The position numbers and the translations under genes are program-made. The notes beneath the pieces are model-generated. The model had not been told where the DNA came from. It did not search any database and saw only the letters and a list, made by a program, of their open reading frames with translations. Positions 1-54,479 of a stretch of DNA of 64,000 nucleotides are shown here, one piece after another (the stretch's first letter is position 1; every line of letters begins with the position of its first letter). Source of the DNA: Natronospirales bacterium (GTDB taxonomy: Bacteria > Pseudomonadota > Gammaproteobacteria > Natronospirales > REEB76); the NCBI GenBank assembly GCA_021792635.1, contig JAJYUH010000001.1, positions 10,515-74,514 of the forward strand. The letters run 5' to 3'.

Positions 1-543
1 CGGCACGATGCGTGTCTTACTGCCCTTGCCGGTGATGCGCACGGTGGCATCGTGCAGGTCCACGTCGTGCAGCTCGAGCGAAATCAGTTCCGCAAGCCGC
101 AAGCCGGAGGAGTAGAGCAGTTCCATGATCGCGCGATCGCGCACGGCTGCGGGTGCATCGCCGCGGATTTCCAGCAACTGCGCCATCTGATCGGCATCCA
201 GGGTTACCGGCAAGTGCCGCGGTGCTTTGGGGGCATGCACGCCGTTGGCGGGATTATTGCGCGCCGCACCCTCGCGCAGCAGGTAATTGTAGAAAGTGCG
301 CACGGCGGCGAGCAGGCGTTGCAGGCTGTGCGGTGAAAGTCCCTGGCGGTGACGCGCGCTCACAAAGGCGCGTACATGATGAATGTCTATGGCATTCCAG
401 TCGGCGACATTCTGCTGTTCGCAGTATTGCCGGAAGGTATCGAGATCGTGGCGGTAGCTCGCCGCCGTGAGGGGTGAGAGGCGGCGCTCGTGGGCAAGAT
501 GTCCGATGAAACGGTCAATCCAGTCAGCGAGCGCCGCGGTCAT
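1..543 (-). CDS. xerC: Tyrosine recombinase XerC, N-terminal part (runs off the left edge)
   Basis: My translation from the ATG at 543 gives MTAALADWIDRFIGHLAHERRLSPLTAASYRHDL, and the window edge reads VRITGKGSKTRIVP. It has an ATGA overlap with the DUF484 stop and the classic dapF-DUF484-xerC order. Confidence 0.92.
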   Translation of the reverse strand, partial: MTAALADWIDRFIGHLAHERRLSPLTAASYRHDLDTFRQYCEQQNVADWNAIDIHHVRAFVSARHRQGLSPHSLQRLLAAVRTFYNYLLREGAARNNPANGVHAPKAPRHLPVTLDADQMAQLLEIRGDAPAAVRDRAIMELLYSSGLRLAELISLELHDVDLHDATVRITGKGSKTRIVP

Positions 544-1244
544 CCCGGCAACAGCGGCTGGATGGCCGCCGCCACAAGTTCACCGATGCGCATGAGAAAG
601 GCGGTACCGAGCGTCGGACCGAAACGGTCCGCCTCATGGCTGCCCACGGCGAGGATGCCGAGCCGGCCGTGATCGCCCAGCGGCATCAGCGCGATGGACG
701 CGATGCGCTCCGCCTGTTCGCCGAACAGGAATTCCAGTTGCGGCGCGCGCAACCGGCCCACATAAGGCTTGCCGGCCTTCATGAATTCGCGGAACTGCTC
801 GAAACCCGCATCCTCGCGTTTGATCCAGCGTGCCGGGCCGGCGTCGAGGTTCGCGGACCGGTCAGTGATGAGGAACAGGCTCACCTCATCGGCACCGAAG
901 CGGTTGCGCAGCTCCTCCTGCACCGAATACAGGCGCTCCGCCAGCGCTTGCCCTTCCAGCAGCGCCACGGCAAGGCGGTGAATGCGTTCGATGAGCGCAT
1001 CGTTGGCACGCGCCACCTCGATCATGTCCACCAGCTTGCGCTCCATCTGGCGGTACTGCTGACGCAGCACCTCCACCTGACGCTCGATGAGCGATATTGC
1101 CTGGCCGCTGGGATGCGGCACCTTGAGTTTGGTGAGGATGTCGGTGCGGGCTTCGAAGAAATCAGGATGGGTGATGAGGTAATCCGTGACCGTCCGCTCG
1201 ATATCCGCGGTATCGCGGACGCCGGTTTTGCGCTCAATGCTCAT
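540..1244 (-). CDS. DUF484 (YigA-like) protein
   Basis: YLITHPDFF...VPHP.G.AISLIERQVEVLR signature; lies between dapF and xerC. Confidence 0.9.
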   Translation of the reverse strand: MSIERKTGVRDTADIERTVTDYLITHPDFFEARTDILTKLKVPHPSGQAISLIERQVEVLRQQYRQMERKLVDMIEVARANDALIERIHRLAVALLEGQALAERLYSVQEELRNRFGADEVSLFLITDRSANLDAGPARWIKREDAGFEQFREFMKAGKPYVGRLRAPQLEFLFGEQAERIASIALMPLGDHGRLGILAVGSHEADRFGPTLGTAFLMRIGELVAAAIQPLLPG

Positions 1245-2080
1245 AGGTTGATGGTTCCGTCATACACCCGGTTCGCCGGGCCGCTCATCCACACAGGTTG
1301 CCCCTCGCCCTGCCAGCTTATCATGAGATGGCCGCCGCGCAGGACCACGTCCACCGTCTCATCCAGCCAGCCGGCAAGCCGTCCCCAGGTCACCGCCGCG
1401 CAGGCACCGGTGCCGCAGGCGAGCGTTTCGCCGGTGCCGCGCTCGAATACACGCAGACGCATATGCGTGCGATCCAGCCACTGGGCGAAACCCACGTTGG
1501 TACGTCTGGGGAAACGCGGGTGGCGCTCGATCTTGGGTCCGAGTTCGGCCAGCGGAGCGATATCCACGTCCGGCACATCCAGAATGGCATGGGGGTTACC
1601 CATGGAAACGGCGCCGATCTCGTAATTGCGGCCGTCCACTTCCAACTCATAGGTCAAGGCACGCTCGCGCGCCGTGAAAGGGATACGCGCGGGTTCGAGG
1701 ATGGGTACGCCCATATCCACGCGTACGTTGTCCACATCCTTCACATCCGCGCGCAGCTCGCCGCCCACGGTTTCCAGCGTGAAGGCCGGCCCTTTCACCC
1801 GGCCGTTTTCCACCAGAAAGCGGCTCACGCAACGGGCGCCGTTGCCGCACTGCTCCACTTCGCCGCCGTCGGCATTGTAGATGCGGAAGCGCGCGGCATT
1901 GACCCCGTCTTTGGGCCTGTCAATGACCAGCAGTTGGTCGAAGCCCACACCCACGCGCCGATCGGCCAGTTTTTGGATGAGACCGGCATCCAGCGCCAGC
2001 GGTTGCTCCCTGGCGTCAATCACCATGAAGTCGTTACCGAGGCCCTGCATTTTTGTGAATGCGACTTTCACAGTTCGCAC
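1241..2080 (-). CDS. dapF: Diaminopimelate epimerase
   Basis: FTKMQGLGNDF, EQCGNGARC and ERGTGETLACGTG motifs. Confidence 0.97.
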   Translation of the reverse strand: MRTVKVAFTKMQGLGNDFMVIDAREQPLALDAGLIQKLADRRVGVGFDQLLVIDRPKDGVNAARFRIYNADGGEVEQCGNGARCVSRFLVENGRVKGPAFTLETVGGELRADVKDVDNVRVDMGVPILEPARIPFTARERALTYELEVDGRNYEIGAVSMGNPHAILDVPDVDIAPLAELGPKIERHPRFPRRTNVGFAQWLDRTHMRLRVFERGTGETLACGTGACAAVTWGRLAGWLDETVDVVLRGGHLMISWQGEGQPVWMSGPANRVYDGTINL

Positions 2081-2084
2081 CCTG

Positions 2085-2531
2085 TCAGGGTTGCACGGCC
2101 AGCAGCCGGTTCTTGAGTTCGACGATTTTCACCCAATAGATGATCCACAGTACCAGGGTGGCGATCGAGGCAAGCCACCAGCCCAGTACCGGAACCAGTA
2201 TCAGAACCGCAAGAATGCTCATGGCGATGCCGATGCCCTGACCACAGTCGCCCACATCCTGAATGCCGCGTTCGGTAAATTCGCGTTTCAGCGAGCCGGA
2301 TACGTGGGTGACGATGAAGAAATTCCAGATAAGGCCGAACAACGGGATCAGGTTCAGCCATACCAGCCCGGGTGCAAGCGTGCGGTTTTTTGGCGAAACA
2401 CTTTGCAGGGCGCTCTGCATGCTGATCAGGTAAAAAATCGTGGGGATGAGCCAGAGTGAGAAAATGGTCAGCATTGCATAAGTGAACAGTGCTCCCACCA
2501 TGGCTCCCGCCATCATGTCATGCATGTACAT
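2085..2531 (-). CDS. Hypothetical integral membrane protein
   Basis: 148 aa with about 4 hydrophobic segments and a VWLNLIPLF motif. The start codon is uncertain because there are several Met codons. Confidence 0.7.
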   Translation of the reverse strand: MYMHDMMAGAMVGALFTYAMLTIFSLWLIPTIFYLISMQSALQSVSPKNRTLAPGLVWLNLIPLFGLIWNFFIVTHVSGSLKREFTERGIQDVGDCGQGIGIAMSILAVLILVPVLGWWLASIATLVLWIIYWVKIVELKNRLLAVQP

Positions 2532-2561
2532 GGATACCTCCCCGGCTTGCCGGGCATGTGC

Positions 2562-2993
2562 TCATGTCAATGCCGGTCCTGGTATCAGGCGCCGGTATTC
2601 CTTATAGATGCAGCGGTCCATGACTGCGAAAATCCCCGCCTGGCGGGCGCGATTCGCCGCCGCTTCGTTCACCACCCCTTCCTGCAGCCACAGGGCGGAC
2701 AGTTTGAGCGCGATGCAGTCATCCACAATCGCTTGCACGAATTCCGGTGCACGGAACACATCCACCAGATCCACCGGCCCCGGCAGATGTCTCAGATCCG
2801 GATAGGCTTTTTCGCCCAGTATTTCATCCACTGCCGGTCGCACCGGAATGATCTTGTAGCCGAAGCCTTGCAAGGCTTGCGCCACGCCATGGCTCGGCCG
2901 ATCAGGGTTGGGCGAGAGGCCCACCACCGCGATACGGCGGGTTTTCTCGAGCAGTGCACGAATGGCGCCGGGTGAGGGATTGGCAAAGCTCAT
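2562..2993 (-). CDS. CoA-binding protein (YccU-like)
   Basis: IAVVGLSPNPDRPS, VDLVDVFR and LWLQEGV..MDRC motifs. Confidence 0.92.
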   Translation of the reverse strand: MSFANPSPGAIRALLEKTRRIAVVGLSPNPDRPSHGVAQALQGFGYKIIPVRPAVDEILGEKAYPDLRHLPGPVDLVDVFRAPEFVQAIVDDCIALKLSALWLQEGVVNEAAANRARQAGIFAVMDRCIYKEYRRLIPGPALT

Positions 2994-3148
2994 GTTTTCA
3001 GGCCGTTGGGCTGGTGGCGATCATTATATATATAGACAAGCAGGTTTCCGCGGGCAGCCTGCATGGCCAATTGCACCGTATCGAGCCCTGAGGCGGAGCC
3101 GCATATCGTATATATTGACGGGCCAGCCAATACCGGGCCGTTGCCGCC

Positions 3149-4615
3149 ATGAAATATAAAGACCTGCGCGATTTTCTCTCCCAGCTTGAAGCCCGGGGCG
3201 AGCTGAAACGCATAGGCGTCGCCGTGGACCCACGTCTGGAGATGACTGAGATTTGCGACCGCACCCTCAAGCAGGGCGGACCGGCGCTGCTGTTTGAGAA
3301 CCCCAAAGGCCATGCGATCCCGGTGCTGGGCAACCTGTTCGGCACGCCGCGGCGCGTAGCACTGGGCATGGGCCGGGAATCGGTGGAAGCATTGCGCGAA
3401 GTGGGGCAACTGCTCGCCACGTTGCGGGAGCCGGAGCCGCCGCAAGGCCTGAAGGATGCCTGGGAAAAACTGGGTGTATTCAGGCAGGTGTTCAGGATGC
3501 CGCCGAATAAGGTCGGCACGGCGGCTTGTCAGCAGAACCGTCTTGAAGGCGAAGAGGTGGATTTGAAAAAATTCCCCATCCAGACCTGCTGGCCCGGCGA
3601 TGCGGGGCCGCTCATCACCTGGGGACTCACGGTCACCAGAGGAACACGCAAACCGCGGCAGAATCTCGGCATCTACCGCCAGCAGCTGATCGGCAGGAAC
3701 AAACTCATCATGCGCTGGCTGGCGCACCGCGGCGGTGCCCTGGATTTCAGGGATTGGCAGGAAGCGCATCCCGGTGAACCGTTTCCCGTGGCGGTGGCGC
3801 TGGGTGCCGATCCCGCCACCATCCTGGGCGCGGTCACACCGGTGCCGGATAATCTTTCCGAATATTCCTTCGCGGGATTGCTGCGCGGTGCACGCACCGA
3901 AGTGGTGAAATGCATATCCAATGACCTGATGGTGCCCGCCAGCGCCGAGATCGTGCTGGAAGGCCACATCCTGCCCGGTGAGACGGCAGCGGAAGGTCCG
4001 TTCGGCGACCACACCGGCTATTACAACGAAGTGGAAAGCTTCCCGGTGTTCACCGTCACCCGCATCACCCACCGGGACGATCCGATCTATCACTCCACCT
4101 ACACCGGCCGGCCGCCGGACGAACCCGCGGTGCTGGGCGTGGCGCTCAACGAAGTGTTCGTGCCCATCCTGCAGAAACAGTTTCCGGAGATCACGGATTT
4201 CTACCTGCCGCCGGAGGGCTGCTCCTACCGCATCGCCTGCGTGAGCATGAAGAAACAGTATCCGGGTCACGCCAAGCGCGTGATGTTCGGCATCTGGAGT
4301 TTTCTGCGCCAGTTCATGTACACCAAGTTCATCATCGTCACCGACGACGACGTGAACGTGCGTGACTGGAAGGACGTGATCTGGGCGGTGACCACGCGCA
4401 TGGATGCGGCGCGCGACTGCACCATCGTCGAGAACACGCCCATTGATTATCTGGACTTCGCCTCGCCGGTTTCGGGTCTGGGCTCCAAGATCGGCTTCGA
4501 TGCCACCAATAAATGGCCGGGTGAAACCCGGCGCCAATGGGGCCGGCCCATTGCCATGAGCGATGAGGTGAAGCGGCGCGTGGATGCACTGTGGGGATCA
4601 CTGGGGTTAAGGTAG
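3149..4615 (+). CDS. ubiD: 4-hydroxy-3-polyprenylbenzoate decarboxylase
   Basis: [10 protein letters not shown] start, [11 protein letters not shown] and [14 protein letters not shown] motifs. Ends in TAG. Confidence 0.97.
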
Positions 4616-5479
4616 CGCTGCCTGCAACTCCCAACCGAGGAGGCGTGTACCCTCCGGCGCGCGCAACTCGCCGGTGCGCACTCCGTTGAATCCTGTTTCA
4701 CGGAAGAGCGTGGCAAGCGCGGCAAGCCCTTCGCGGCTGAGCGCCGCGCGGCGCATGTCCTCAAGACGCGCCTGGTGTGCACGAATTTCCTCTTCGATCC
4801 GGTCGAGTCCCGTGAGGATATAGTCGAGCGTAAATTTGCGGCGCTGATCCCAGGCCGCCCGTACGCCGCCCAGGATTTCGGAGAACAGAGTCTTGGATCC
4901 GGCACCGGGATGGCAGGCATCCACCGCGTGTGCCGCCGCAAGGTAATCCTCGCGCGCCTTGCGTACTGCGTCTTCAAGCCGCGGATCAAAGGTGTTCGCC
5001 CGCTCGAAAGCGAAGGCCGCACGCATCAGCGCGCGCGCCTTGTCCAGAATCCGCAGTTCCCCGGTCAGGAAGGCGATGTCGGCAAGATTCCGGGCCGCAC
5101 CCGCGACCGGGGTTGCGTCCTCGGCGTGCAGCACGAAACGCAGCCGCGCGCCGTGCCTGGCCACCCGCGCGAGCTCGCGCACGGAGGAGGCCGGATCGGT
5201 GTATTCCAGCGCGTATTGGCCGGTGAGGCCGTCAAAATGCCGATCCCGGAAAGGCAGGGATTCGGCGGATGTGCGGCCGTGAAAGTGGATGTCCGCCAGC
5301 GCCCCGGAGGTGGCATGCACGAAACGCGCGGGGTCAATATCCGCCCGGTCCACGCCGTGAATTTCAAAGCGGCGGCCGGCCTGCGCCGCGATTTCCCGGG
5401 CGATCAGGGGCACGGCGCCGTTGCCGGTGCCGATGTCCAGCAGCCGCGCGCCATCGGGGAACAGCTCAAAAAAAGCCAC
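4607..5479 (-). CDS. Class I SAM-dependent methyltransferase (true 5' end uncertain)
   Basis: LLDIGTGNG motif I, AESLPF and GQYALEY. The frame stays open and protein-like (YWQADRLSAC) upstream of the called GTG. Confidence 0.8.
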
Positions 5480-5685
5480 CCAGCCGGTGCGGATGACCCG
5501 GGCGTAATTGCCGGTGGCCGCGTCCGTCAGGCAGGCCGACAGCCGGTCCGCCTGCCAATACCGGAGGAGGAAGTCAAAAACCTGTTGTCCGCTGTTGGCG
5601 CCCGGGCGCCGGCGTCTATACTCATGACATGCTTAAAGGGGCTTGAATACCCACCACGGGGAATGATCTGTTTCGAGGAGGCTGC

Positions 5686-6327
5686 ATGCGCACGATCATG
5701 GTGATAAATGCCAAGGGTGGCTGCGGCAAATCCACGCTGGCCACCAACATTGCGGGCTATTTCGCCAGCAACTGGGACGCGGTGGTGAGTCTCGCGGACT
5801 TTGATCCGCAGGGCTCCAGCCTGGACTGGCTCGCGAAGCGGCCGCCCGAGCGCGACAAGATCCACGCTGTGGATGCGCACAATGAGGGTCTGCGGCATCT
5901 GGATCGCAACAGCGATTTCCTCATCGTGGATTCGCCCGCCCGCTCCCATGGTTCCGAGCTCACGCAGATGGTGCGTCATGCCGAGACCGTCGTGGTGCCG
6001 GTGCTGCCGTCGCCCATTGATATCAACGCCGCCGGCAAATTCGTGCAGGAACTGCTGGACGTGGGCAAGGTGGAACGCAAGGAGGTGAAAGTGGCGGTGG
6101 TGGCCAACCGCGTGCGCGAGAACCTGCTGATTTACGCCGAGCTGGAAAAATTCCTCGACACTCTCAAGGTGCCGGTAATCGCACGGCTGCGCGACACCCA
6201 GAACTACATCCGTGCGTATTCACGCGGACTCGGCATCCACGAATTGCCGGAATACCTCTCTTGGCCGGATCAGGAGCAGTGGGAGCCGCTGGTGAAATGG
6301 CTGGAATCGAAACGCAGCCAGCCATGA
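5686..6327 (+). CDS. ParA/MinD-family ATPase (orphan, no ParB nearby)
   Basis: Deviant Walker A KGGCGKST, DFDPQGS, IVDSP and PVLPSPID motifs. Confidence 0.9.
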   Translation: MRTIMVINAKGGCGKSTLATNIAGYFASNWDAVVSLADFDPQGSSLDWLAKRPPERDKIHAVDAHNEGLRHLDRNSDFLIVDSPARSHGSELTQMVRHAETVVVPVLPSPIDINAAGKFVQELLDVGKVERKEVKVAVVANRVRENLLIYAELEKFLDTLKVPVIARLRDTQNYIRAYSRGLGIHELPEYLSWPDQEQWEPLVKWLESKRSQP

Positions 6328-6420
6328 AATCTGCAGCCTTTGGTAGTGCAACGATTCTTGCGCGAGCTGTTTCAGCGGGTATCCGCTCACCGCTTGGGTA
6401 GCAGGCAGTTGCCGCCTGCC

Positions 6421-6921
6421 TCAGGTCTCGTTGTCTTTCGTCACTTGCATTTGTGCGCCGGCAGTCGCGCTGAGGTGGAAATGCCGCGCACAGAAGGCCA
6501 CGATCACACCGAAAATAATCATGGCCGCCAGATTTTCAAGGATTTTCAGGATATGGAAGTGCGGTGAAAACGGCGCCGCGGAGAGCGGCACCACCACGTA
6601 ATTCATGACCAGGAAGATTACGCACCCATAAACCACCCCACCTGCCATCCAGTGCTGCGTAAGCGCGGACAGACGCAGCGCCCCCAAGGCATAGACTGCC
6701 GCGATCACGAGTGACATGGTCCATTGCAGTCCCAATCCCAGCAGTGCGGCAGGCGCGCCGTCATGAAATGATGCTTTCCCCAGCAGCCCGCTGGCGATGG
6801 CGTGCAGGATTATGACGGGGCTGAGCCAGTTGATCAGGGAAGCGGCGCCGATGTCCAGGGTGCCGGCGATGAATCCACCGCAGAAGATGGCGGCAAGAAC
6901 GGCGACGCGCGTATCTTTCAT
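6421..6921 (-). CDS. Hypothetical membrane protein
   Basis: Four hydrophobic helices, GGFIAGTLDI and MNYVVVPLSA; high-GC codon usage. Confidence 0.75.
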   Translation of the reverse strand: MKDTRVAVLAAIFCGGFIAGTLDIGAASLINWLSPVIILHAIASGLLGKASFHDGAPAALLGLGLQWTMSLVIAAVYALGALRLSALTQHWMAGGVVYGCVIFLVMNYVVVPLSAAPFSPHFHILKILENLAAMIIFGVIVAFCARHFHLSATAGAQMQVTKDNET

Positions 6922-7387
6922 GGGCTCACTCCCGGAAATGTGCACGCCACGATTGGGTGTATGCGGTTACAAGTGTAGCCGGAAAGAAATGCCGTACAAG
7001 GCAGGTTTTCTGAAAAATAGTTGATTCATTTGTTATGCTGCGGGCCGGATCCGCGCAGTGACCCCGCGCCGGGATTGTCATGCGGTCCACCACCAGGAAG
7101 AAACAGTATCATTCTTCTGCTCTTGTCTTTGTCGGTGTATTCCTAGGGGAAGGTCCAGACGTTGCACGTGATGATGGACTTGCCGCCGGCGGGACAGTAT
7201 GTCCCATAATCCCGGAACGAGCCGTGATGGAAAGCCGCGCAGATTCGGGGCTGGAATCCGCATGGCAGTCGCCAGGGAGTGAACCGCGGATACTTTGAAA
7301 GAAACAATCGGAACCGAACTCAAACACTTGTGGAAGACAGCACATTGGCGCATATTTTCAGGAACATTGCTTTTCTGGGTACAGGCT

Positions 7388-7780
7388 GTGGACCAATGTA
7401 CGGAAAATAATGGAAAAGATTTGCTCGGTTCCCGCTGGGCATTTTTGCTTTTGTGGGCGGGTCCGTGGGTACTGATCTTCGCAAGCAGCAATACCGGTAA
7501 TCTTATCCACACGGTTGGATGGATCTTCAGCTTCACGGTGATGGGAGGCGCATGCCTGGGTAACGCCCGCCGTTGTGGACGCCGACATTGCTTCTATACC
7601 GGTCCGCTCTATCTTCTGGCCGCACTGGCTTCTCTGCTCTATGGACTGCATATCCTGCCGCTTGGCCGGAATGGCTGGAACTGGATTCTGGGTGTAGCGG
7701 TAGTCGGGAGTCTGTTGGCATGTTGCGGATTGGAGAAATTGTTCGGCAAATACACGACCAGCCGCTCGCCGACGACATAA
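7388..7780 (+). CDS. Small membrane protein with a Cys/His loop (ARRCGRRHC.YTGP)
   Basis: The coding part of ORF 7295-7780 probably starts at GTG 7388. Four TM segments surround CLGNARRCGRRHCFYTGPLY; AT-richer than its flanks. Confidence 0.6.
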   Translation: MDQCTENNGKDLLGSRWAFLLLWAGPWVLIFASSNTGNLIHTVGWIFSFTVMGGACLGNARRCGRRHCFYTGPLYLLAALASLLYGLHILPLGRNGWNWILGVAVVGSLLACCGLEKLFGKYTTSRSPTT

Positions 7781-10472: not shown

Positions 10473-13313
10473 ATGCGGCCCATTTTTCACAGTCATCTTG
10501 TAACGCTTGCAGTTCAGATCGCCCTGGCCGCGACCCTGATGCCGGCAGCACGCGCGGATACTTCCGCCGCCGATCAGCCGATCGCGCTTGGCAGGATCAG
10601 CGTCTCCGGCAAGCCGCTGCCCCCCGTCAAACGCCATGAGCCACTGCCGGCGGTGCCCATCCAGGTAATCAGACGGCAGCAGCTTGAGGCGAGCGGCGCC
10701 ACCTCCCTCGGTGATTTTCTGCAGCAACTCACCAGTATGGGTTCGGCGGCCGGCACCGCACAGAATTTCGGTGCCAACGGCGAGACCAACATCAACCTGC
10801 GCAATCTGGGCGCCAAGCGCGTGCTGGTGCTGGTAAACGGCCGGCACTGGACGCCGACGCTGGGCGGCGACGTGGACCTCAACACCATTCCGCTTGCCAT
10901 CGTGGAGCGTATCGAAATTCTCGAGTCCGGCGACTCGGCGCAGTACGGTTCCGGGGCCATCGCCGGGGTGGTGAATGTCATTACCCGGCACGATTTCAAC
11001 GGCAGCGAGGCCAGCGCCTACTTCGGCGAATACGTGGAAGGCGGGGTGCGCGATGGCCAGACTTCCGCTTACAGCTACACCGACGGACATACCAATGACC
11101 GCGGCAGCCTTGTCTTCAACGCCTCTTACTATGACCAGCGTCCGGTACCGGGCGCCGACCGCGCCGTTTCCGCCGTGCCGCGCTACGGCACCGGCATCAC
11201 CCGCGGCAGTTCCGTGACCCCCCAGGGGCGTTTCGAGTTCATCAATCCCGATACCGGCCAGCTCGAAGACCTGACCGTGATCAACGGTACTGCGGGTACG
11301 AGTCCCGCGGATTTCCGCCCGTTCAATCCGGCCGCGGATCTGTTCAACTACGCGCCCTACAATTATCTTTTGACGCCCGCCAAACGCGCCGCGCTGTACA
11401 TGCAGGGCGAGCGGCTGCTCAATGACAACCTCAACCTGCATTACACCGCGTTCTATAACGACAGCCGCTCGGCACAGCAGGTGGGGCCGTCGGAGCTGAG
11501 TATCGGTGCGCAGACGCCCAACCCCATCAGCGTCTCGGCCGGCAATCCGTACAATCCCTTCGGTTTCGATCTTACCGCCACCGGCGCCAACCCCAACCTG
11601 CTGCTGCTGGCGCGTCAGCCGGTGGAGGCCGGCCCTAATGTCTTCACCGAAGACGAACAAACCGCTTATTTCAACACCGGCCTGAACGGCCGCTTCGCCT
11701 TTGTCCGGCGCATCTTTGATTGGTCAGTGGATGGCATCTACAGCCGCTTCGGCAAGACCAACCAGCAGGGGCCGGTCTTCAATCTCGACAACGTGGCGAA
11801 TGCTCTCGGTCCGGTGTCTCAGTGCGGCCCCGGCAGCGGGCATCCGGACTGCGTGCCGCTCAATCTCTTCGGCGGTCAGTTCAACGGCGGCACCATCACA
11901 CCGGCGATGTTGAGTTACATTACCTACACTTCGCAGAACACCTCCGCCAACAGTCTGCGCGATGTCGCCGCACACCTTGGCACCGACCTGCTGCAATTGC
12001 CGGCCGGGCCGCTGCACGCGCAGATATTTTATGAATACCTGTCCCAAGACGGCAGCAGCACGCCGGATCCGCTCGCCGCCGCCGGTGCCAGCAGTCTGGG
12101 CGCGAGTGCGCCCACCTCCGGCGCTTTGCGAGACAACGCGTTTGGACTGTACCTGAAAATCCCGGTGAGCGCCGGTCTCGGACTCGATGCCGCCGCGCGC
12201 CGCGACCGCTACAGCCACTTCGGCTCCGTGAGCAGCAACCTGGCGGCACTGCACTGGCAGATGAATCCGGCTGTGCGCCTGCGCGCGAGCTGGTCCCGGG
12301 ATTTCCGCGCACCTTCCATGAACGAACTTTTCAGTGGCAGTCTTACCGGCGCGGCGAGTCTCACGGACCCTTGCAGCAACTACCCGCAGACCGGCGGCAC
12401 GCTGGCGGCCAATTGCGCGAATGCGGGGGTACCCGCGAGCTACACCCAGGTGAGCCCGGATGTCACCACCGTAAGCGGCGGCAACCCGGCGCTCAGGCCG
12501 GAAACTTCCACTTCGCGTACCGTGGGCGGCGACTTCATGCCTTGGAGTGGATTGCCGCTTACCTTGTCTGCCGACTATTTCAAGATCGAGGTGAACAACG
12601 CCATCAGCCAGTTGAGCCCGCAGAACATTCTCAACGGCTGCTATCTGAGCGGGGTTCCCAATCTGTGCGGCTTCGTGCAGCGCGATGCCTCGGGGGCGAT
12701 CACCCGTCTCACCGACACCAAAGCCAACATCGGTACGCTGCGCACTGCCGGCGTGGACTTCGGCGCGCATTACATTCTGGACACCGCCGACCGTGGTCGC
12801 ATCGAATTCCAGTGGCTCACCACCTGGGTGAAATACTTCACCCAGATCCAGCCCAACCTCGCCAACCCGGCCGCGCCCATCGTGACCCAACTCGCGGGCA
12901 CCGAGACCGGCAACCCCATCGGCGGTTATCCCAGGTTCCGTTCCGAGTTTGATGCCGGTTGGCACTACGGCGCCTGGCAGGTGACCTGGCGCGTGCATTA
13001 TCTGAGCGACCTCACCGAACCCTGCAGCGACGGCCTGGACGGTACGCCCCAGAGCTTCACCAATCTCGGCCTGTGCAGCAACCCGGACTACCGGAACAAT
13101 GCGCTGTCCACCAACCAACTGGGGGCCACCACCTGGCAGGATGTGCAGGTGCAGTGGACGCTGCCGGACAGGCGCACCACGCTCCGCTTCGGCATACTCA
13201 ACATGTTCGACAAGCAGCCGCCCATCGGCCACTCCATGGCGGATAGTTTTGATACAACGTTGTATCCAATTCCGGGGCGTTTCCCATACGTGAGTTTCTC
13301 CCGCAGTTTCTGA
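10473..13313 (+). CDS. TonB-dependent receptor
   Basis: 946 aa with a signal peptide, plug motifs (INLRNLGAKRVLVLVNG; YGSGAIAGVVNVIT) and a terminal beta-strand ending in F. Confidence 0.95.
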   Translation: MRPIFHSHLVTLAVQIALAATLMPAARADTSAADQPIALGRISVSGKPLPPVKRHEPLPAVPIQVIRRQQLEASGATSLGDFLQQLTSMGSAAGTAQNFGANGETNINLRNLGAKRVLVLVNGRHWTPTLGGDVDLNTIPLAIVERIEILESGDSAQYGSGAIAGVVNVITRHDFNGSEASAYFGEYVEGGVRDGQTSAYSYTDGHTNDRGSLVFNASYYDQRPVPGADRAVSAVPRYGTGITRGSSVTPQGRFEFINPDTGQLEDLTVINGTAGTSPADFRPFNPAADLFNYAPYNYLLTPAKRAALYMQGERLLNDNLNLHYTAFYNDSRSAQQVGPSELSIGAQTPNPISVSAGNPYNPFGFDLTATGANPNLLLLARQPVEAGPNVFTEDEQTAYFNTGLNGRFAFVRRIFDWSVDGIYSRFGKTNQQGPVFNLDNVANALGPVSQCGPGSGHPDCVPLNLFGGQFNGGTITPAMLSYITYTSQNTSANSLRDVAAHLGTDLLQLPAGPLHAQIFYEYLSQDGSSTPDPLAAAGASSLGASAPTSGALRDNAFGLYLKIPVSAGLGLDAAARRDRYSHFGSVSSNLAALHWQMNPAVRLRASWSRDFRAPSMNELFSGSLTGAASLTDPCSNYPQTGGTLAANCANAGVPASYTQVSPDVTTVSGGNPALRPETSTSRTVGGDFMPWSGLPLTLSADYFKIEVNNAISQLSPQNILNGCYLSGVPNLCGFVQRDASGAITRLTDTKANIGTLRTAGVDFGAHYILDTADRGRIEFQWLTTWVKYFTQIQPNLANPAAPIVTQLAGTETGNPIGGYPRFRSEFDAGWHYGAWQVTWRVHYLSDLTEPCSDGLDGTPQSFTNLGLCSNPDYRNNALSTNQLGATTWQDVQVQWTLPDRRTTLRFGILNMFDKQPPIGHSMADSFDTTLYPIPGRFPYVSFSRSF

Positions 13314-13354
13314 TTATTTTCCGCTCGTCGTTTCCTGCGGCGCGGATGGCTCAG

Positions 13355-13410
13355 CCTGCGTAATACCCGCGCAGGCAGGGTAATCTGTGGGAGCGGCCGA
13401 CCCGGCCGCG
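13355..13410. repeat. REP-like palindromic elements
   Basis: ATACCC-GCGCAGGCA-GGGTAAT and TGTGGGAGCGGCC-GACCC-GGCCGC hairpins sit between convergent genes. A looser GTGGGAGA..TCTCCC hairpin occurs near 41873. Confidence 0.35.
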
Positions 13411-13484
13411 GGGATCCGTGGGAGAGAAATTGCGGCGAGTATCACCCGCCTGCATCCGTCCAGGAAGTAAAAGTTGTCCGGTCT

Positions 13485-14330
13485 TTACGGCAAGAGTCCC
13501 CGATTTCTCGCTGCAACGATCAATACTGCCGGAATATACAGTGCGAAAAGTAACACACACAATAAGACGAAATCGTGCTTGTGGAGACCCATCACTATGC
13601 CGGAAAGTATCCCCCAAACCAGCCACACGCCTGCGGCAACAAATGACTCTGTCCGAATGTATTTCGCGTGATTTATCCGATTTTCCAGCGCGGCATCTTT
13701 CTCATTCCCTGAAACAAAAAGAGAAAGAGCCTGCCGATTACCCAGGCCAACAAGCATACGCGCAAATCCTACCAGCATGTTCCATAGCAATCGGATGCTT
13801 CCTCCCGTAAACGAGTCTTTTTTTCCTATTAGCCCCACCCGGGTAATGATATGCAGCATGGTGCCCAATCCGGCCATAAGGCAGATGGCCCAAATGCTCC
13901 AAATCCCATAGACAACAATCACCGGAACAGGTATCCCGGCATGAGCGAGATAGATCCAAGAAAACACTGCAACAAGATAAGAAATACCCCCGATCAGCTG
14001 CCATTTCCGTGTGTTTTTTCTTCGCAGTAATTTTGGAGAGGCGTCCGGCTTTTGATGAGCTCCGGCAGGTGATGTCGTCCCTATCCGGACTGCGGTAACG
14101 ATTAGCACCAAGGCTGCGGCTAGATACAGGTCGGCGACAATTTCGTTATGGAGGTGATTGCCCCACGCAACCATAACCAACACCACCGCTAAAAGCAGGA
14201 TCGCAATCGCGCCCCTGCGCCCCATTGCCGGACCGCGAGTAAGGACACACAGCCTTATAAAGGCGATGCAAACAACCAGCAGAGTAAACATACCGGCAAG
14301 TAATCCGCGATTATCCGCAAAGATGGTCAT
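13485..14330 (-). CDS. Orphan polytopic membrane protein (about 7 TM)
   Basis: GAAGGA RBS before MTIFADNRG; many hydrophobic segments; visibly AT-richer than the flanks. Confidence 0.7.
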   Translation of the reverse strand: MTIFADNRGLLAGMFTLLVVCIAFIRLCVLTRGPAMGRRGAIAILLLAVVLVMVAWGNHLHNEIVADLYLAAALVLIVTAVRIGTTSPAGAHQKPDASPKLLRRKNTRKWQLIGGISYLVAVFSWIYLAHAGIPVPVIVVYGIWSIWAICLMAGLGTMLHIITRVGLIGKKDSFTGGSIRLLWNMLVGFARMLVGLGNRQALSLFVSGNEKDAALENRINHAKYIRTESFVAAGVWLVWGILSGIVMGLHKHDFVLLCVLLFALYIPAVLIVAARNRGLLP

Positions 14331-14490
14331 GGTTATCTTTCCTTCACGACAAATGCTTTTCAATGCGCACTAAAAACAATAGTGCCGCGTCACTCGTGAC
14401 CTGCCTGCGGCAGGCAGCCTTCGCACCACGCGGACGCGGTGCTACGGCCGCTAGGGCATCCCTTGGCTTTTCGCCTCGCGCTTCCCTGGC

Positions 14491-15243
14491 TCATTGACAC
14501 TGAGTCACTGTATTTATGAGCATGGCTGTTCCGTAAACGTTGGCAAAGTCGAGAGAAAATAAAGTGGTCGCGGGATCAAAGAAAGCAACAATAAGTGCTG
14601 CATCTCCGGCTGCAAAAGCCCCACACGTCAAGGCCCGATCGAATGAGATATTCGGACGGATGGTCGAGGAGGTGATGCTCGATGAACTGGTGGTCAGATA
14701 CTGTGACCAAAACGATGACGGGATTGCATCCATGGCAGAAAAGAAGTCTGGATCGGCATTGATGATCTCCTGGCGCAGGCGTGTCAATGCCGTGGCATCG
14801 CCCGCTAGCAGGGCACCACTCGCGGAGAATATAAAGGTGCCACTATCCGAAGTGGGCGAGTATTGAGCGTAAAGCTGAAAGGCAGCCGAACCATTGTAGG
14901 TAATCGGCGTTAATTCCAGCAGGGAATCCGTTAAATTGACTACCGTAGTCTTTATCCCGTTGGTAACGCTGAATGTTGCAGGTATCTACGGATAACCTTG
15001 GACAATCGTTTGATAATTGATTGTTTCGCTACTTGTATTGATTGCACCATTTACATTGCCCTAGTTGTAGGCTGCATTTAGCTGTACAGGTGGATTCGGA
15101 TTCGGCGGATTGCAGCTGCTGGGCGAAAGTGATCCCGGCTTGCCAACCACAAACGGCTGGCAGATGGCATACGCCTGACCGATGCCGCCGATCAGCAGAG
15201 AGACGAATACAAGCATTAGCGGTATAACGGGGTTGATCTTCAT
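14491..15243 (-). pseudogene. Secreted protein (250 codons) interrupted by two in-frame TAG codons: pseudogene or amber-readthrough gene
   Basis: AGGAGG RBS and a signal peptide ending AYA. One continuous frame runs to TGA at 14491-14493, with TAG at 15061-15063 and 14986-14988 and no frameshift. It joins track ORFs 15061-15243 and 14491-14787. Confidence 0.75.
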
Positions 15244-15615
15244 TGAGAAGCCCTCCTGGTAATAGCCGGCGCCTTGCGATGGCGTAGGTATCAGTTGGTG
15301 TAGACCTGCAATCGCGACTTGTCAAGGCGACCTTGAAGTAGACTGTGACATTGTCAGTGACGCGTGGTTGTCTCAATAGGAACTTGTGATGGATAGCAGG
15401 TGTGCTGGGATAAAAGCATGGTTAGACGTGATGAACTGCAGTCAATGACAAAGGCTTGCATCAGAGGTTCCAGTTCCTCATGACAGGCGATTTGCATTCG
15501 GCGCGACTTCCGCTTTAAGGTGTTGCTTGTGAACGAAGTCGCCGGTTACTTTCACCTCCGTATTGATCTGTCCCCACTGCGGCAGGGGCTGTTGCTGACG
15601 CAACTGAGAACCGGA

Positions 15616-16572
15616 TTAAAACCGGAACACCAAAAAATACATCAGCAGTGTATTCACCGCCAGCAGCACCAGGCCGGTGGGTACCTGAACCCGGACGACG
15701 CCGTTCTTGTCGGGCAGTTCCAAGAGCGCCACCGGCACGATGTTGAAGTTGGCGGCCATGGGCGTCATGAGCGTGCCGCAGTAGCCGGACAGCATCCCCA
15801 CCGCAGCCATGATAGCCGGATCTCCGCCGAGTTTGTGCACGATGAGCGGCAGACCGATGCCCGCGGTCATCACCGGGAAAGCGGCGAAAGCATTCCCCAT
15901 GATCATGGTGAACAGCGCCATGCCCAGCGTGTAGGCCGTGACCACCCAGAAGGCATCATTGACCGGGATAAAGCGGCCCACCAGAGCAGAGACCACCTGA
16001 CCCACACCCGCGGCGGCGAACAGTGCGCCCAGCGCCGCCAGCAGTTGCGGCAGCACCGCCACCGTGCCCACCGCCGTCAAAAGCCGGCGGCCTTCGTGCA
16101 AGGAGGTGACGAAGCGCTGGCGGAACAGCCACAGCGCCGCAACCAGCGCCACAATCACCGACAAACCCAGCGAGATCAGGGTGGCGTCTTTGGCCGCCGC
16201 CAATGCCTGGCCGTTTATCGCGATCTTTGGCAGCAGCAGGGTGCCGAGGAACGTCACCAACGGAATGCACAGCGCCGGGATGAAAAGTTTATCCCGCAGG
16301 CGCGCGGCGCTCTGGCGCCGCTCCGCTTCCGTCGTGGTTTTCACTTTGCTGGCACCCAGGTCTTTCCAGCCGGTCACCAACACCATCAGGATCACCAGAC
16401 AGCCGGTTGCAAAAGGTGGCAGCACCGATCCGAACAGGAAGGTGATGCCATAGATGCCCCAGAATGCGGTTTTGCGGTAGCGTTTGGGGTTGGCGCGGTC
16501 GAGAAACTCGAGCACGGCCACCGTTAAGAACAGCAGACCGCCGAGCGCGTAGATGAATTCCAGCCGGATCAT
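15616..16572 (-). CDS. DUF979 family membrane protein (putative 5-oxoproline transporter subunit)
   Basis: PQLLAALGALF, FTMIMGNAFAAFPVMTAGIG and GYCGTLMTPMAANFNIVP motifs; ATGA-coupled to DUF969. Confidence 0.92.
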   Translation of the reverse strand: MIRLEFIYALGGLLFLTVAVLEFLDRANPKRYRKTAFWGIYGITFLFGSVLPPFATGCLVILMVLVTGWKDLGASKVKTTTEAERRQSAARLRDKLFIPALCIPLVTFLGTLLLPKIAINGQALAAAKDATLISLGLSVIVALVAALWLFRQRFVTSLHEGRRLLTAVGTVAVLPQLLAALGALFAAAGVGQVVSALVGRFIPVNDAFWVVTAYTLGMALFTMIMGNAFAAFPVMTAGIGLPLIVHKLGGDPAIMAAVGMLSGYCGTLMTPMAANFNIVPVALLELPDKNGVVRVQVPTGLVLLAVNTLLMYFLVFRF

Positions 16573-17246
16573 GTTTTGCGATCCTTGAATTGTTTGTTCA
16601 AGCGGCGATCCAATAGCAACAGGCGCGCACCGTGGATGATGAATACCGCGATGGCGGTGGGGATGGCCCACAGGGCGATATGCAGCGGCGTGAGACGAAT
16701 GCCGTTTTCGTCCAGAAATCCCTTGATCAGCAGCACCGATCCCATGGCAAGGAAGATGTCCTCGCCGAAGAACACACCCACGTTATCCACAGCGGCGGCG
16801 TGGGCCAGGATCAGATAGCGGGTTTTATCCGGCAATTCGCCGAAGCGCGCTTCCGCCGCGGCTTCCGCCATGGGTGCGATCAGCGGCCGCACCATCTGCG
16901 CCTGACCGCCGAGAGACGTCAGTCCGATACTGGCGGTGAGCTGGCGGATGGCGAGATACAGCAGCAGCACGCGACCGGTGGTGGCGGATTGGATGCGACT
17001 AATAAGTTCCTGGGCGCGTTCCTTGAGGCCGCTGCGCTCCAGCAGACCGATCACCGGCAGCGTCAGCCACACCAGCCCCACGTAACGGTTCTCGGTGAAC
17101 GCACGGCCGAAGTCGCTGACGATCGCGACCGGACTCAGACCGCCCGCAACTCCGGTAGCGATGCCCGCCACCGTCACCACCAGCAGCGGATTCACCCGCA
17201 ATGCGAAGCCGATGATGACGATGAGGACGCCGATGAGTGTGAGCAT
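16569..17246 (-). CDS. DUF969 family membrane protein
   Basis: LPVIGLLERSGLKE, LGGQAQMVRPLIAPM and DNVGVFFGEDIF motifs. Confidence 0.92.
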   Translation of the reverse strand: MLTLIGVLIVIIGFALRVNPLLVVTVAGIATGVAGGLSPVAIVSDFGRAFTENRYVGLVWLTLPVIGLLERSGLKERAQELISRIQSATTGRVLLLYLAIRQLTASIGLTSLGGQAQMVRPLIAPMAEAAAEARFGELPDKTRYLILAHAAAVDNVGVFFGEDIFLAMGSVLLIKGFLDENGIRLTPLHIALWAIPTAIAVFIIHGARLLLLDRRLNKQFKDRKT

Positions 17247-17417
17247 GCTACTGCCTTGAACATGAATGACGCGGAAGCCCGGGCCGGCATTATGTGGAAC
17301 TGGATTCACGCTGGCAAACAGCTGGCGCAGAGCGCTTGTCGGCATGACGGCTCCGTGGGAGTATCCAGTGGGGTTTTGGACCGCCCGGCATGCCCGCAAT
17401 ACACCTGGGGAGGCGTT

Positions 17418-18224
17418 ATGGATACGGTTGATGACGAATCTGTGGTGGAGCAAGCGCATTTTTTCGCGGTGAATGAGCGCATTGGCAGGCTGCGTTATCT
17501 GGCCTATGAAATGGGACTGGGCCTGCTAATGATCTTGCCGCTGATTTTTGGGGTTGCGCTGACATTGAAGGGGATGCCATTGCTGGGAAAGGCGATCGCG
17601 TATGGCTGTTATGCGGCTGCGTGGGTAATGGGCACTCTCTTCACTGTTCGTCGCCTGCATGACATGGACGCCAGCGGCTGGTGGGCGCTTCTGATCCCTG
17701 TCCCCATCGCCGATCTGATTCTGGCGCTGGTCTTGATTTTCCGTCCGGGTACGGACTCCGTGAATCGCTTCGGCCAGCCACCGTCACCCAACACCGGCTG
17801 GGTGATTGCCGGAGCACTCGCCTATCCGGCACTCATCATCGTGGGTTGCACCACTGCCATTTTTACCCCTCTGTACCGGGATCATGTGGTGCGCGCACAG
17901 GTAGCCGCAAGCTTCCAAAGCATTTATATGCTGGAAAACGAAGTGATCGCGTACTACAAGGTCAACGGCAAATGGCCGACTAAAGACGAAGATATCCGGT
18001 TACCATTGCCGTCGCCTGGCGGCATTATCCAATCCATCGGCATCGAGCGGGATGGCGGCATCCATCTCATCTACGGTCGGCCATACCAGTTAAGCGGTAA
18101 GTCGGTTTATGTGATGCACTATGCAAACGCGGATGGCACTTTCATCTGGGGGTGCTCCACTAATGTGGATGATAAATACTTGAGCGGAAAAGCGCGGGCG
18201 AACTGCGCACCACTGATTAAATAG
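17418..18224 (+). CDS. DUF805 domain fused to a pilin-like C-terminal domain
   Basis: GGAGG RBS; RIGRLRY..VRRLHDMDASGWWALL..PGT..VNRFGQPP (DUF805), then Y.D...RAQV....YY..NGKWP (pilin-like). Confidence 0.8.
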   Translation: MDTVDDESVVEQAHFFAVNERIGRLRYLAYEMGLGLLMILPLIFGVALTLKGMPLLGKAIAYGCYAAAWVMGTLFTVRRLHDMDASGWWALLIPVPIADLILALVLIFRPGTDSVNRFGQPPSPNTGWVIAGALAYPALIIVGCTTAIFTPLYRDHVVRAQVAASFQSIYMLENEVIAYYKVNGKWPTKDEDIRLPLPSPGGIIQSIGIERDGGIHLIYGRPYQLSGKSVYVMHYANADGTFIWGCSTNVDDKYLSGKARANCAPLIK

Positions 18225-53681: not shown

Positions 53682-54479
53682 CTAGCCGGGTTCGGTGACG
53701 TCAGCGAGCAGCCGGCGCACCGCGCTGCGATAGGTTATGCCGGAGGCAAAGCGCTCGCCGGTGCGCAACAGGAATTCATAGTCACCGCGCTGTCTGGGCT
53801 TCATTTCCTTCACATAGTCCAGATTGAGAATCACCGAGCGGTTGATGCGCACAAATGTCCAGCCCTCCAGCCGCTGCGCCATGTGACGAACCCGTTCGCG
53901 GATCATCGCGCGCTGCCCACTGGCGGTGTAGATGTGCAGATAATCGCCCTCCGACTCCATGTAGGTGATGTCCTCCAGATTGAGGAATTTGAGCCGGCTG
54001 CCGTCCTTGACGGTGATTCGTCCGCTGGCACGGGGTGCAAGAGAGGGTATGGGCGCGGGTGGCGTGAAAGGCATAGCCTGGTGGAGGCTACCGGACGCAG
54101 TGGTCACAGGAGCATTGTGCGCGAGCCGGGTTCTAATCTTGTCGAGCGCCTGTCGGAAACGCTCTTTGTCGAAAGGTTTTAAAAGATAGTCCACCGCATC
54201 CACCGCAAAAGCTTCCAGCGCGTGCTCGCCATACGCCGTGGTGAAGATGATGTACGGCGGTTGATCTGCCTGCAGCAAGCGGCTGAGCTGGAGCCCGGAT
54301 AATCCCGGCATTTTGATGTCCAGGAAGACCAGGTCCGGGGACAGTTGTTTCACCTTGGCAAGCGCATCCATGCCGTCACCGCTTTCTCCGGCGAGCAGCA
54401 AATCCTGCTCGTGCCTCATCAGGTCCCGTATGCGCTTGCGGGCGAGCGGTTCATCATCAGCTATGAGTACCTTGATCAT
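53682..54479 (-). CDS. LytTR-family response regulator
   Basis: DDEPLAR, FLDIKMP and AVDYLLKP receiver motifs; C-terminal LytTR domain (FVRINRSVILN). Confidence 0.95.
   Translation of the reverse strand: MIKVLIADDEPLARKRIRDLMRHEQDLLLAGESGDGMDALAKVKQLSPDLVFLDIKMPGLSGLQLSRLLQADQPPYIIFTTAYGEHALEAFAVDAVDYLLKPFDKERFRQALDKIRTRLAHNAPVTTASGSLHQAMPFTPPAPIPSLAPRASGRITVKDGSRLKFLNLEDITYMESEGDYLHIYTASGQRAMIRERVRHMAQRLEGWTFVRINRSVILNLDYVKEMKPRQRGDYEFLLRTGERFASGITYRSAVRRLLADVTEPG

Follow-up and report, generated by a model that had tools for sequence, protein, structure and literature searches.

In-frame TAG codons in genes that look functional and end in a different stop are known from amber-recoded phages, which decode TAG as Gln, and from pyrrolysine decoding. 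Reassignment of TAG is recognized by a single amino acid at the TAG sites, by recurrent in-frame TAGs combined with avoidance of TAG as a terminator, and by phage or mobile content that includes a suppressor tRNA; pyrrolysine decoding is recognized by a TAG conserved in homologues together with pylTSBCD. Nonsense pseudogenes in clonal, IS-rich lineages carry single transitions in otherwise intact genes, accumulate later lesions downstream of the first, and have relatives with independent indels, IS insertions and start-codon losses. Examples of membrane-active polymorphic toxins with membrane immunity proteins are CdzC/CdzD, which are bacteriocins of the glycine-zipper type (PMC5380434), and ionophores of the CdiA-CT class (PMC11630599).

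Here we compare these systems with a gene in a 64-kb window, the whole stretch of DNA that was analysed, for which an earlier note had described two in-frame TAG codons and had proposed double nonsense inactivation, acquisition from a TAG-recoded donor, or conditional readthrough. We are confident that the gene is an ordinary pseudogene that arose by two sequential nonsense transitions and that both TAGs terminate translation. Its resemblance to amber-recoded phages and pyrrolysine decoding lies on the surface only, in the in-frame TAGs of a functional-looking gene that ends otherwise. From nonsense pseudogenes of clonal, IS-rich lineages it differs in nothing essential, the lone oddity being that two alleles were struck at the same Trp codon.

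The target lies on the minus strand at 15243..14491 and spans 250 codons, from ATG (15243-15241) to TGA (14493-14491). A plus-strand reading of the same interval was rejected, having stops throughout its translation. An AGGAGG ribosome-binding site (RBS; 15257-15252, minus strand) lies 8 nt upstream of the start codon, and codons 1-26 (15166..15243, minus strand) encode a typical Sec-type signal peptide, MKINPVIPLMLVFVSLLIGGIGQAYA, which ends in AYA and leaves a Cys at mature position 2. The four Cys residues are at positions 28, 44, 207 and 249. Translation of the minus strand gave only two stops ahead of the terminal TGA, both TAG: codon 61 (15063-15061), between AAYN and GNVNG, and codon 86 (14988-14986), between QGYP and IPATF. 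The description on which the earlier note had built, namely a strong RBS, a signal peptide and four Cys in one 250-codon frame free of indels and broken by two TAGs alone, was thus borne out, with every feature on the minus strand. The gene sits in a low-GC island (13300..15600, no strand assigned; ~50-55% GC vs ~63% in the flanks) together with an intact gene for a 281-aa membrane protein, and a promoter scan of the island found no sigma-70 consensus.

To establish what the two codons had been, we turned to relatives of the protein and the gene. A search of 5.8 billion proteins returned four relatives of the target. In the closest, P0001 (95% identity, E 4.6e-144), residue 61 is Trp and residue 86 is Gln, whereas P0002 pairs Trp61 with Gly86. 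P0036, which comes from an NCBI assembly, is an intact 250-aa allele with W61 and Q86. DNA alignments gave TGG at codon 61 in all three alleles compared (L001, L105 and L005), and CAG (L001, L105) or GGG (L005) at codon 86. Among these, L001 (GCA_027440575.1) occupies the syntenic position beside the DUF979 and DUF969 genes, and L105 is the allele nearest to the window in the variable patch and has sense codons at both sites. The target's dN/dS against three alleles was 0.26, which shows constraint on a coding gene before the lesions arose. The frame is genuine coding sequence rather than a chance opening, as a 95% identical homologue, an intact 250-aa allele and this dN/dS attest.

Both stops are single transitions from two different sense codons, since relatives carry TGG at the first site and CAG at the second. 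The CAG-to-TAG route that had been suggested for the stops accordingly holds at codon 86 but not at codon 61, where the change was TGG to TAG. The sense codons in relatives that the earlier note had named as a mark of an ordinary pseudogene were found at the two sites, as TGG, and CAG or GGG, rather than as CAG at both. In a family alignment of 23 diverse members, 21 of which align at residue 61, that residue is the Trp of the motif SYSWG and is Trp in about half of the aligned members; residue 86 falls within a variable stretch. No member of the alignment has a stop at either residue, and among homologues TAG at codon 61 or 86 occurred only within the window's own clone.

The same locus in other assemblies preserved the order of events. 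The exact 281-aa downstream protein was present on 16 contigs, 10 of which were examined together with one locus from a DUF979 look-up. TAG61 was present in all 11 of these other assemblies, and in nine the target gene was 100% identical to that of the window, with both TAGs. The remaining two, L095 (ERZ27237313) and L097 (GCA_021842125.1), combine TAG at codon 61 with CAG at codon 86, and a SNP at 14988 is their sole difference from the window gene. TAG61 evidently came first and TAG86 later, inside an already truncated gene, because these two strains carry the one without the other. The lone SNP within the gene in this population is thus a nonsense change, for which the prior is ~3% per substitution, a figure without weight here, given that two stops were the reason for choosing the locus. 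The strains form a nearly clonal set, with 0-5 SNPs over ~7 kb outside one recombinant patch. That the dead gene has no further damage yet fits its setting, because the population is nearly clonal and the inactivation recent.

The exceptional patch, at 16000-17250, covers the DUF979 and DUF969 genes and diverges strongly among otherwise near-identical strains: it is 67-87% identical to L001, has ~50 SNPs in L089 and L091 and shows ~220 differences in L095, between flanks of 99-100% identity. The patch resembles a tract left by recombination. Beside it on the plus strand, 17418-18224 encodes a 268-aa protein with a DUF805 domain and a pilin domain; the 530-aa ORF at 16632-18224 is an artefactual upstream extension of this frame, antisense to the DUF969 gene.

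The lesions followed one another in this way. A G-to-A transition turned Trp codon 61 from TGG into TAG, truncating the product to a 60-residue fragment made of the signal peptide and 34 residues. In the dead gene, a later C-to-T transition turned Gln codon 86 from CAG into TAG, and TAG86 then spread through most, but not all, of the nearly clonal population. With both TAGs read as stops, the full-length protein would not be made. We infer that the rest of the genome contains no suppressor and that the protein is absent.

TAG serves as a stop in this host, as had been noted for ubiD and kdpE: it terminates both of these, an AhpC-family gene and a LytTR regulator gene at full profile coverage or expected lengths, and ~5 of the 51 genes predicted from GC3 end in it. 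It was also the target's own terminator, for the ancestral end of the gene is TGT TTT TAG (L005, L007 and L105), of which a relic remains in the window at ~14378-14370. The occurrence of two TAGs rather than other stops is unremarkable, since 44-52% of the nonsense substitutions possible in the target yield TAG (10 of 16 if only transitions are counted). No convincing TAG-interrupted gene emerged from a crude scan of the window, which in this GC-rich DNA returned chiefly frames that oppose real genes on the other strand or continue beyond their ends. Sense codons in alleles, TAG as a functional stop and stops recurring in 9-11 independent assemblies together match what distinguishes nonsense pseudogenes. 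In view of the relatives' codons, the strains with TAG61 and CAG86, and the use of TAG as a stop, double nonsense inactivation, which had been put forward as the simplest option, is the one we retain.

The present 3' end of the gene has a separate history. A GC-rich element of ~118 nt (14379..14496, no strand assigned), which contains the palindrome CCTGCCTGCGGCAGGCAGG and was delimited by comparison with L007, L105 and L001, is inserted precisely where the penultimate Cys codon once adjoined the original TTT-TAG. Both the last codon of today's gene, CAA, and its TGA stop derive from the element, so that the family's C-terminal -CF has become -CQ. Neither L007 nor L105 has the element, and both end in -CF TAG; L001 has a shorter version of it with an IS110-family insertion at its start. 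The element is bordered by imperfect direct repeats, ACTCAGTGT and ACTATTGT, and a repeat search found it as a single copy in the window.

Inactivation was not confined to the window's clone. In a different allele, ~85% identical to the window gene (L108 635-817 and L109 887-1069), codon 61 has changed from TGG to TGA. A 1-bp deletion in codon 9 is present in L001, P0038 and P0040. L105 has +2, +1 and +1 indels and a degraded RBS, the RBS being present in L001 and L005. In L005 itself the ATG has become TTG and 1 bp is deleted close to the 3' end, and in P0035 the start is replaced by an Ile codon. L006 and L007 are truncated by an IS, with a transposase gene in place of the first ~130 codons. 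In four assemblies (L110-L113), the gene passes after codon 77 into unrelated GC-rich DNA, which starts at ~3229; the contigs end 140-340 nt past the junction. This DNA, which is probably a repeated mobile element, had no Rfam match in L110 and no match from L110-L113 in the other loci or the window. By contrast with the target, the DUF979, DUF969, TonB-dependent receptor and 281-aa membrane-protein genes are called as complete in almost all of these contigs. From codon counts, the chance that the same Trp codon would be hit twice (TAG in one allele, TGA in another) is estimated at ~5-8% among transition nonsense sites.

The family to which the target belongs is rare. When 1.84 billion representatives were searched exhaustively with a profile, only 27 clusters reached E <= 0.001, with no Pfam domain or name among them, and neither the target nor the 281-aa neighbour had a match in Pfam, NCBIfam, PADLOC or PHROGs; the window had no match in Rfam. 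GTDB species representatives scanned with P0001 contained no relative. A scan of GTDB with the DUF979 neighbour found 80 loci, the nearest in Gammaproteobacteria MAGs at 71-83% aa identity, none of them with the target family. In the nearest of these MAGs (L009 9227-10944), the DUF969 and DUF979 matches each fall in two pieces, which may be due to frameshifts or assembly errors.

Family members share a common architecture. The N-terminal part consists of a Sec signal peptide, which ends in an A-x-A then Cys pattern across the alignment, two Cys near the mature N-terminus, and the SYSWG motif. It is followed by a beta-rich core, in which the motifs LPHS and YAPNGDSGTF occur, and then by a helix ending in ADP. 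The C-terminus is a Gly/Ala-rich hydrophobic stretch of 40-45 residues between two conserved Cys, usually with a -CF end. AlphaFold2 run with 23 sequences gave a model with pLDDT 80.8 and pTM 0.73 (a 3-sequence run gave pLDDT 39), in which a predicted beta domain (P0001 residues 44-138) precedes helices and the C-terminal stretch is modelled as helical. Foldseek found no significant match for this model in PDB (best E 0.058) or BFVD. An avidin/FABP-like barrel (Foldseek probability 0.7-0.8, E > 0.1) was rejected as insignificant, and partial, weak PDB-sequence profile matches to designed beta-trefoils (best E 0.0017) were taken as spurious. The -CF end was also considered as a PEP-CTERM-type sorting signal or an OMP beta-signal, and both were set aside, there being no NCBIfam match and the model showing helices. 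DGR-type hypermutation of the variable patch at 15127-14928 was dropped, the differences not being confined to adenines.

Part of the gene recurs in a paralogous cassette (L002-L004). A conserved 5' module (15091..15351, minus strand), made of ~108 nt upstream and the first 51 codons (153 nt), is 87% nucleotide-identical between the window (15091-15351) and L002 (7890-8153), while the rest of the cassette protein is much more diverged, with 47% identity overall. This pattern suggests that modules may have been exchanged behind a conserved 5' part. The membrane protein downstream of the L002 cassette has no detectable similarity to that of the window, and both cassette types co-occur in samples ERZ27233557 and ERZ27237313. 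The intact L002 cassette adjoins a region (392-7775) with genes for a LytTR response regulator, a histidine kinase and a peptidase M50, as well as a radical SAM enzyme, an MFS transporter and a thioredoxin, a neighbourhood reminiscent of peptide-signal and bacteriocin loci. In the window, a LytTR response regulator gene lies at 53682-54479, ~39 kb from the target.

The gene that follows the target (13485..14330, minus strand) is intact and encodes the 281-aa polytopic membrane protein, with several TM segments predicted from hydropathy, as a candidate partner or immunity protein. Its 90% cluster contains 12 full-length variants, and its dN/dS against L105 was 0.39. Across four diverged members of the family, the gene that comes next in the same orientation encodes a polytopic membrane protein, of 281, 260, 108 or 88 aa, and BLASTP detected no similarity between the 281- and 260-aa proteins. 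An exported protein followed by a co-oriented, variable membrane gene, as found at these four diverged loci, is one mark of toxin/immunity pairs; homology to a known toxin or immunity domain, another such mark, was not detected. By analogy, this arrangement suggests that the target and the following membrane gene may form a toxin/immunity pair.

Such a pair would bear on why the gene was lost. Possibly, and we hold this only tentatively, the loss was adaptive: a costly secreted, membrane-active, bacteriocin-like toxin would have been shed repeatedly while the membrane protein, as its immunity factor, was kept, leaving the strains as cheaters with orphan immunity. This proposal refines the cause of the pseudogene and does not compete with reading the TAGs as stops. 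In its favour are at least seven independent lesions within the 753 nt of the gene, with one Trp codon struck twice, next to genes that are called as complete in almost all of these contigs. The 281-aa protein, with its 12 full-length variants and its dN/dS of 0.39, points the same way, as do the polytopic membrane protein gene that comes next in the four diverged members, the Gly/Ala-rich, hydrophobic C-terminal stretch, which lies between two conserved Cys and is helical in the model, and the 5' module conserved between otherwise diverged cassettes. Against it, no similarity to a known toxin or immunity protein was found in Pfam, NCBIfam, PADLOC, PHROGs, or PDB sequences and folds, and the membrane gene is frameshifted in L007 and absent in L001. 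Furthermore, the lineage is IS-rich, and general decay could account for many of the lesions; the comparison with neighbouring genes is also biased, the alleles having been collected by homology to the target.

The likeness to CdiA-CT (PMC11630599) and CdzC/CdzD (PMC5380434) extends to several features: a hydrophobic, Gly/Ala-rich, helical C-terminal module with a variable region before it, a gene for a variable integral membrane protein next to it, apparent exchange of modules behind a conserved 5' part, and loss of the candidate toxin gene with the partner gene kept. However, no sequence or fold similarity was detected, so that the relation is one of analogy and not of membership. The target would be exported by a predicted plain Sec signal peptide, in contrast to CDI or type I secretion, and its family differs further in the beta-rich core with YAPNGDSGTF and the -CF C-terminus. 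Taken to its full extent, the adaptive reading would place the target, as a dead copy, in a rare and so far undescribed family of toxins that are Sec-exported, disulfide-stapled and membrane-active, each paired with a hypervariable polytopic membrane immunity protein; the toxin gene would have been knocked out independently at least seven times with the partner kept, an identification that we regard as doubtful but possible.

Whatever drove the loss, the pseudogene reading must be weighed against continued expression. Conditional or programmed readthrough, in which a suppressor tRNA or leaky termination would yield some full-length protein, draws on the otherwise intact state of the target, with its strong RBS and zero indels, yet we judge it very improbable. 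The ancestral residues differ, being Trp at one site and Gln at the other, and one recoding rule is impossible because relatives hold two different residues. Strains with TAG61 alone exist, so that TAG86 arose in a gene already bearing a stop, and another allele has TGA at codon 61. Host genes and the ancestral target end in TAG. Two stops in series would multiply an already low readthrough rate. Of the suppressor check that had been proposed, the 64-kb window and 15 related loci were covered, and neither set contained a tRNA gene. The expectations for pyrrolysine were not borne out, with no TAG in homologues outside the window's own clone and no tRNA gene in the window. In sum, the Trp and Gln sites, the TAG61/CAG86 sister strains and the TGA allele contradict the readthrough option of the earlier note.

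Still less probable, to the point of being very nearly dismissed, is acquisition from a donor, such as a phage, in which TAG codes for an amino acid. The position of the target in a low-GC island and the mobile elements that flank its relatives would be compatible with such an origin. Against it, L001, at the syntenic position, L105 and P0036 have sense codons at both sites, and the family alignment is free of stops there; the syntenic allele and the native TAG stop of the target contradict the option outright. Instead of the one amino acid expected under reassignment, Trp stands at 61 and Gln or Gly at 86. In place of recurrent in-frame TAGs and avoidance of TAG as a terminator, we found TAG in terminal use and a co-resident 281-aa gene with zero in-frame TAGs. 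The target and its neighbour had no PHROG match, the model of the family had no viral fold match (BFVD), and the window contained no tRNA gene. Unlike those of amber-recoded phages and pyrrolysine genes, the TAGs of the target were derived within a clone and are unconserved, they stand at sites of two different residues with no suppressor tRNA or phage context nearby, and TAG is a stop both in host genes and in the target's own ancestors. Sequencing or assembly error can be dismissed, since the same stops recur in independent assemblies from NCBI and ENA, TAG61 in 11 others and TAG86 in nine.

Double-nonsense pseudogenes are a known phenomenon, and the present case is neither an altered code nor readthrough. 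The series from TGG/CAG through TAG/CAG to TAG/TAG makes it a clean worked example of the order in which stops arise, and an annotation pipeline should label the target locus a pseudogene. As a modest side result, the analysis brings out a small, unannotated protein family whose fold is predicted confidently and lacks a PDB match, with a conserved gene partner and repeated independent inactivation. If the adaptive reading is true, the locus would record the natural, repeated evolution of immune non-producers in an uncultured gammaproteobacterial population, and if the toxin/immunity reading is confirmed, the family would be a new family of interbacterial weapons.
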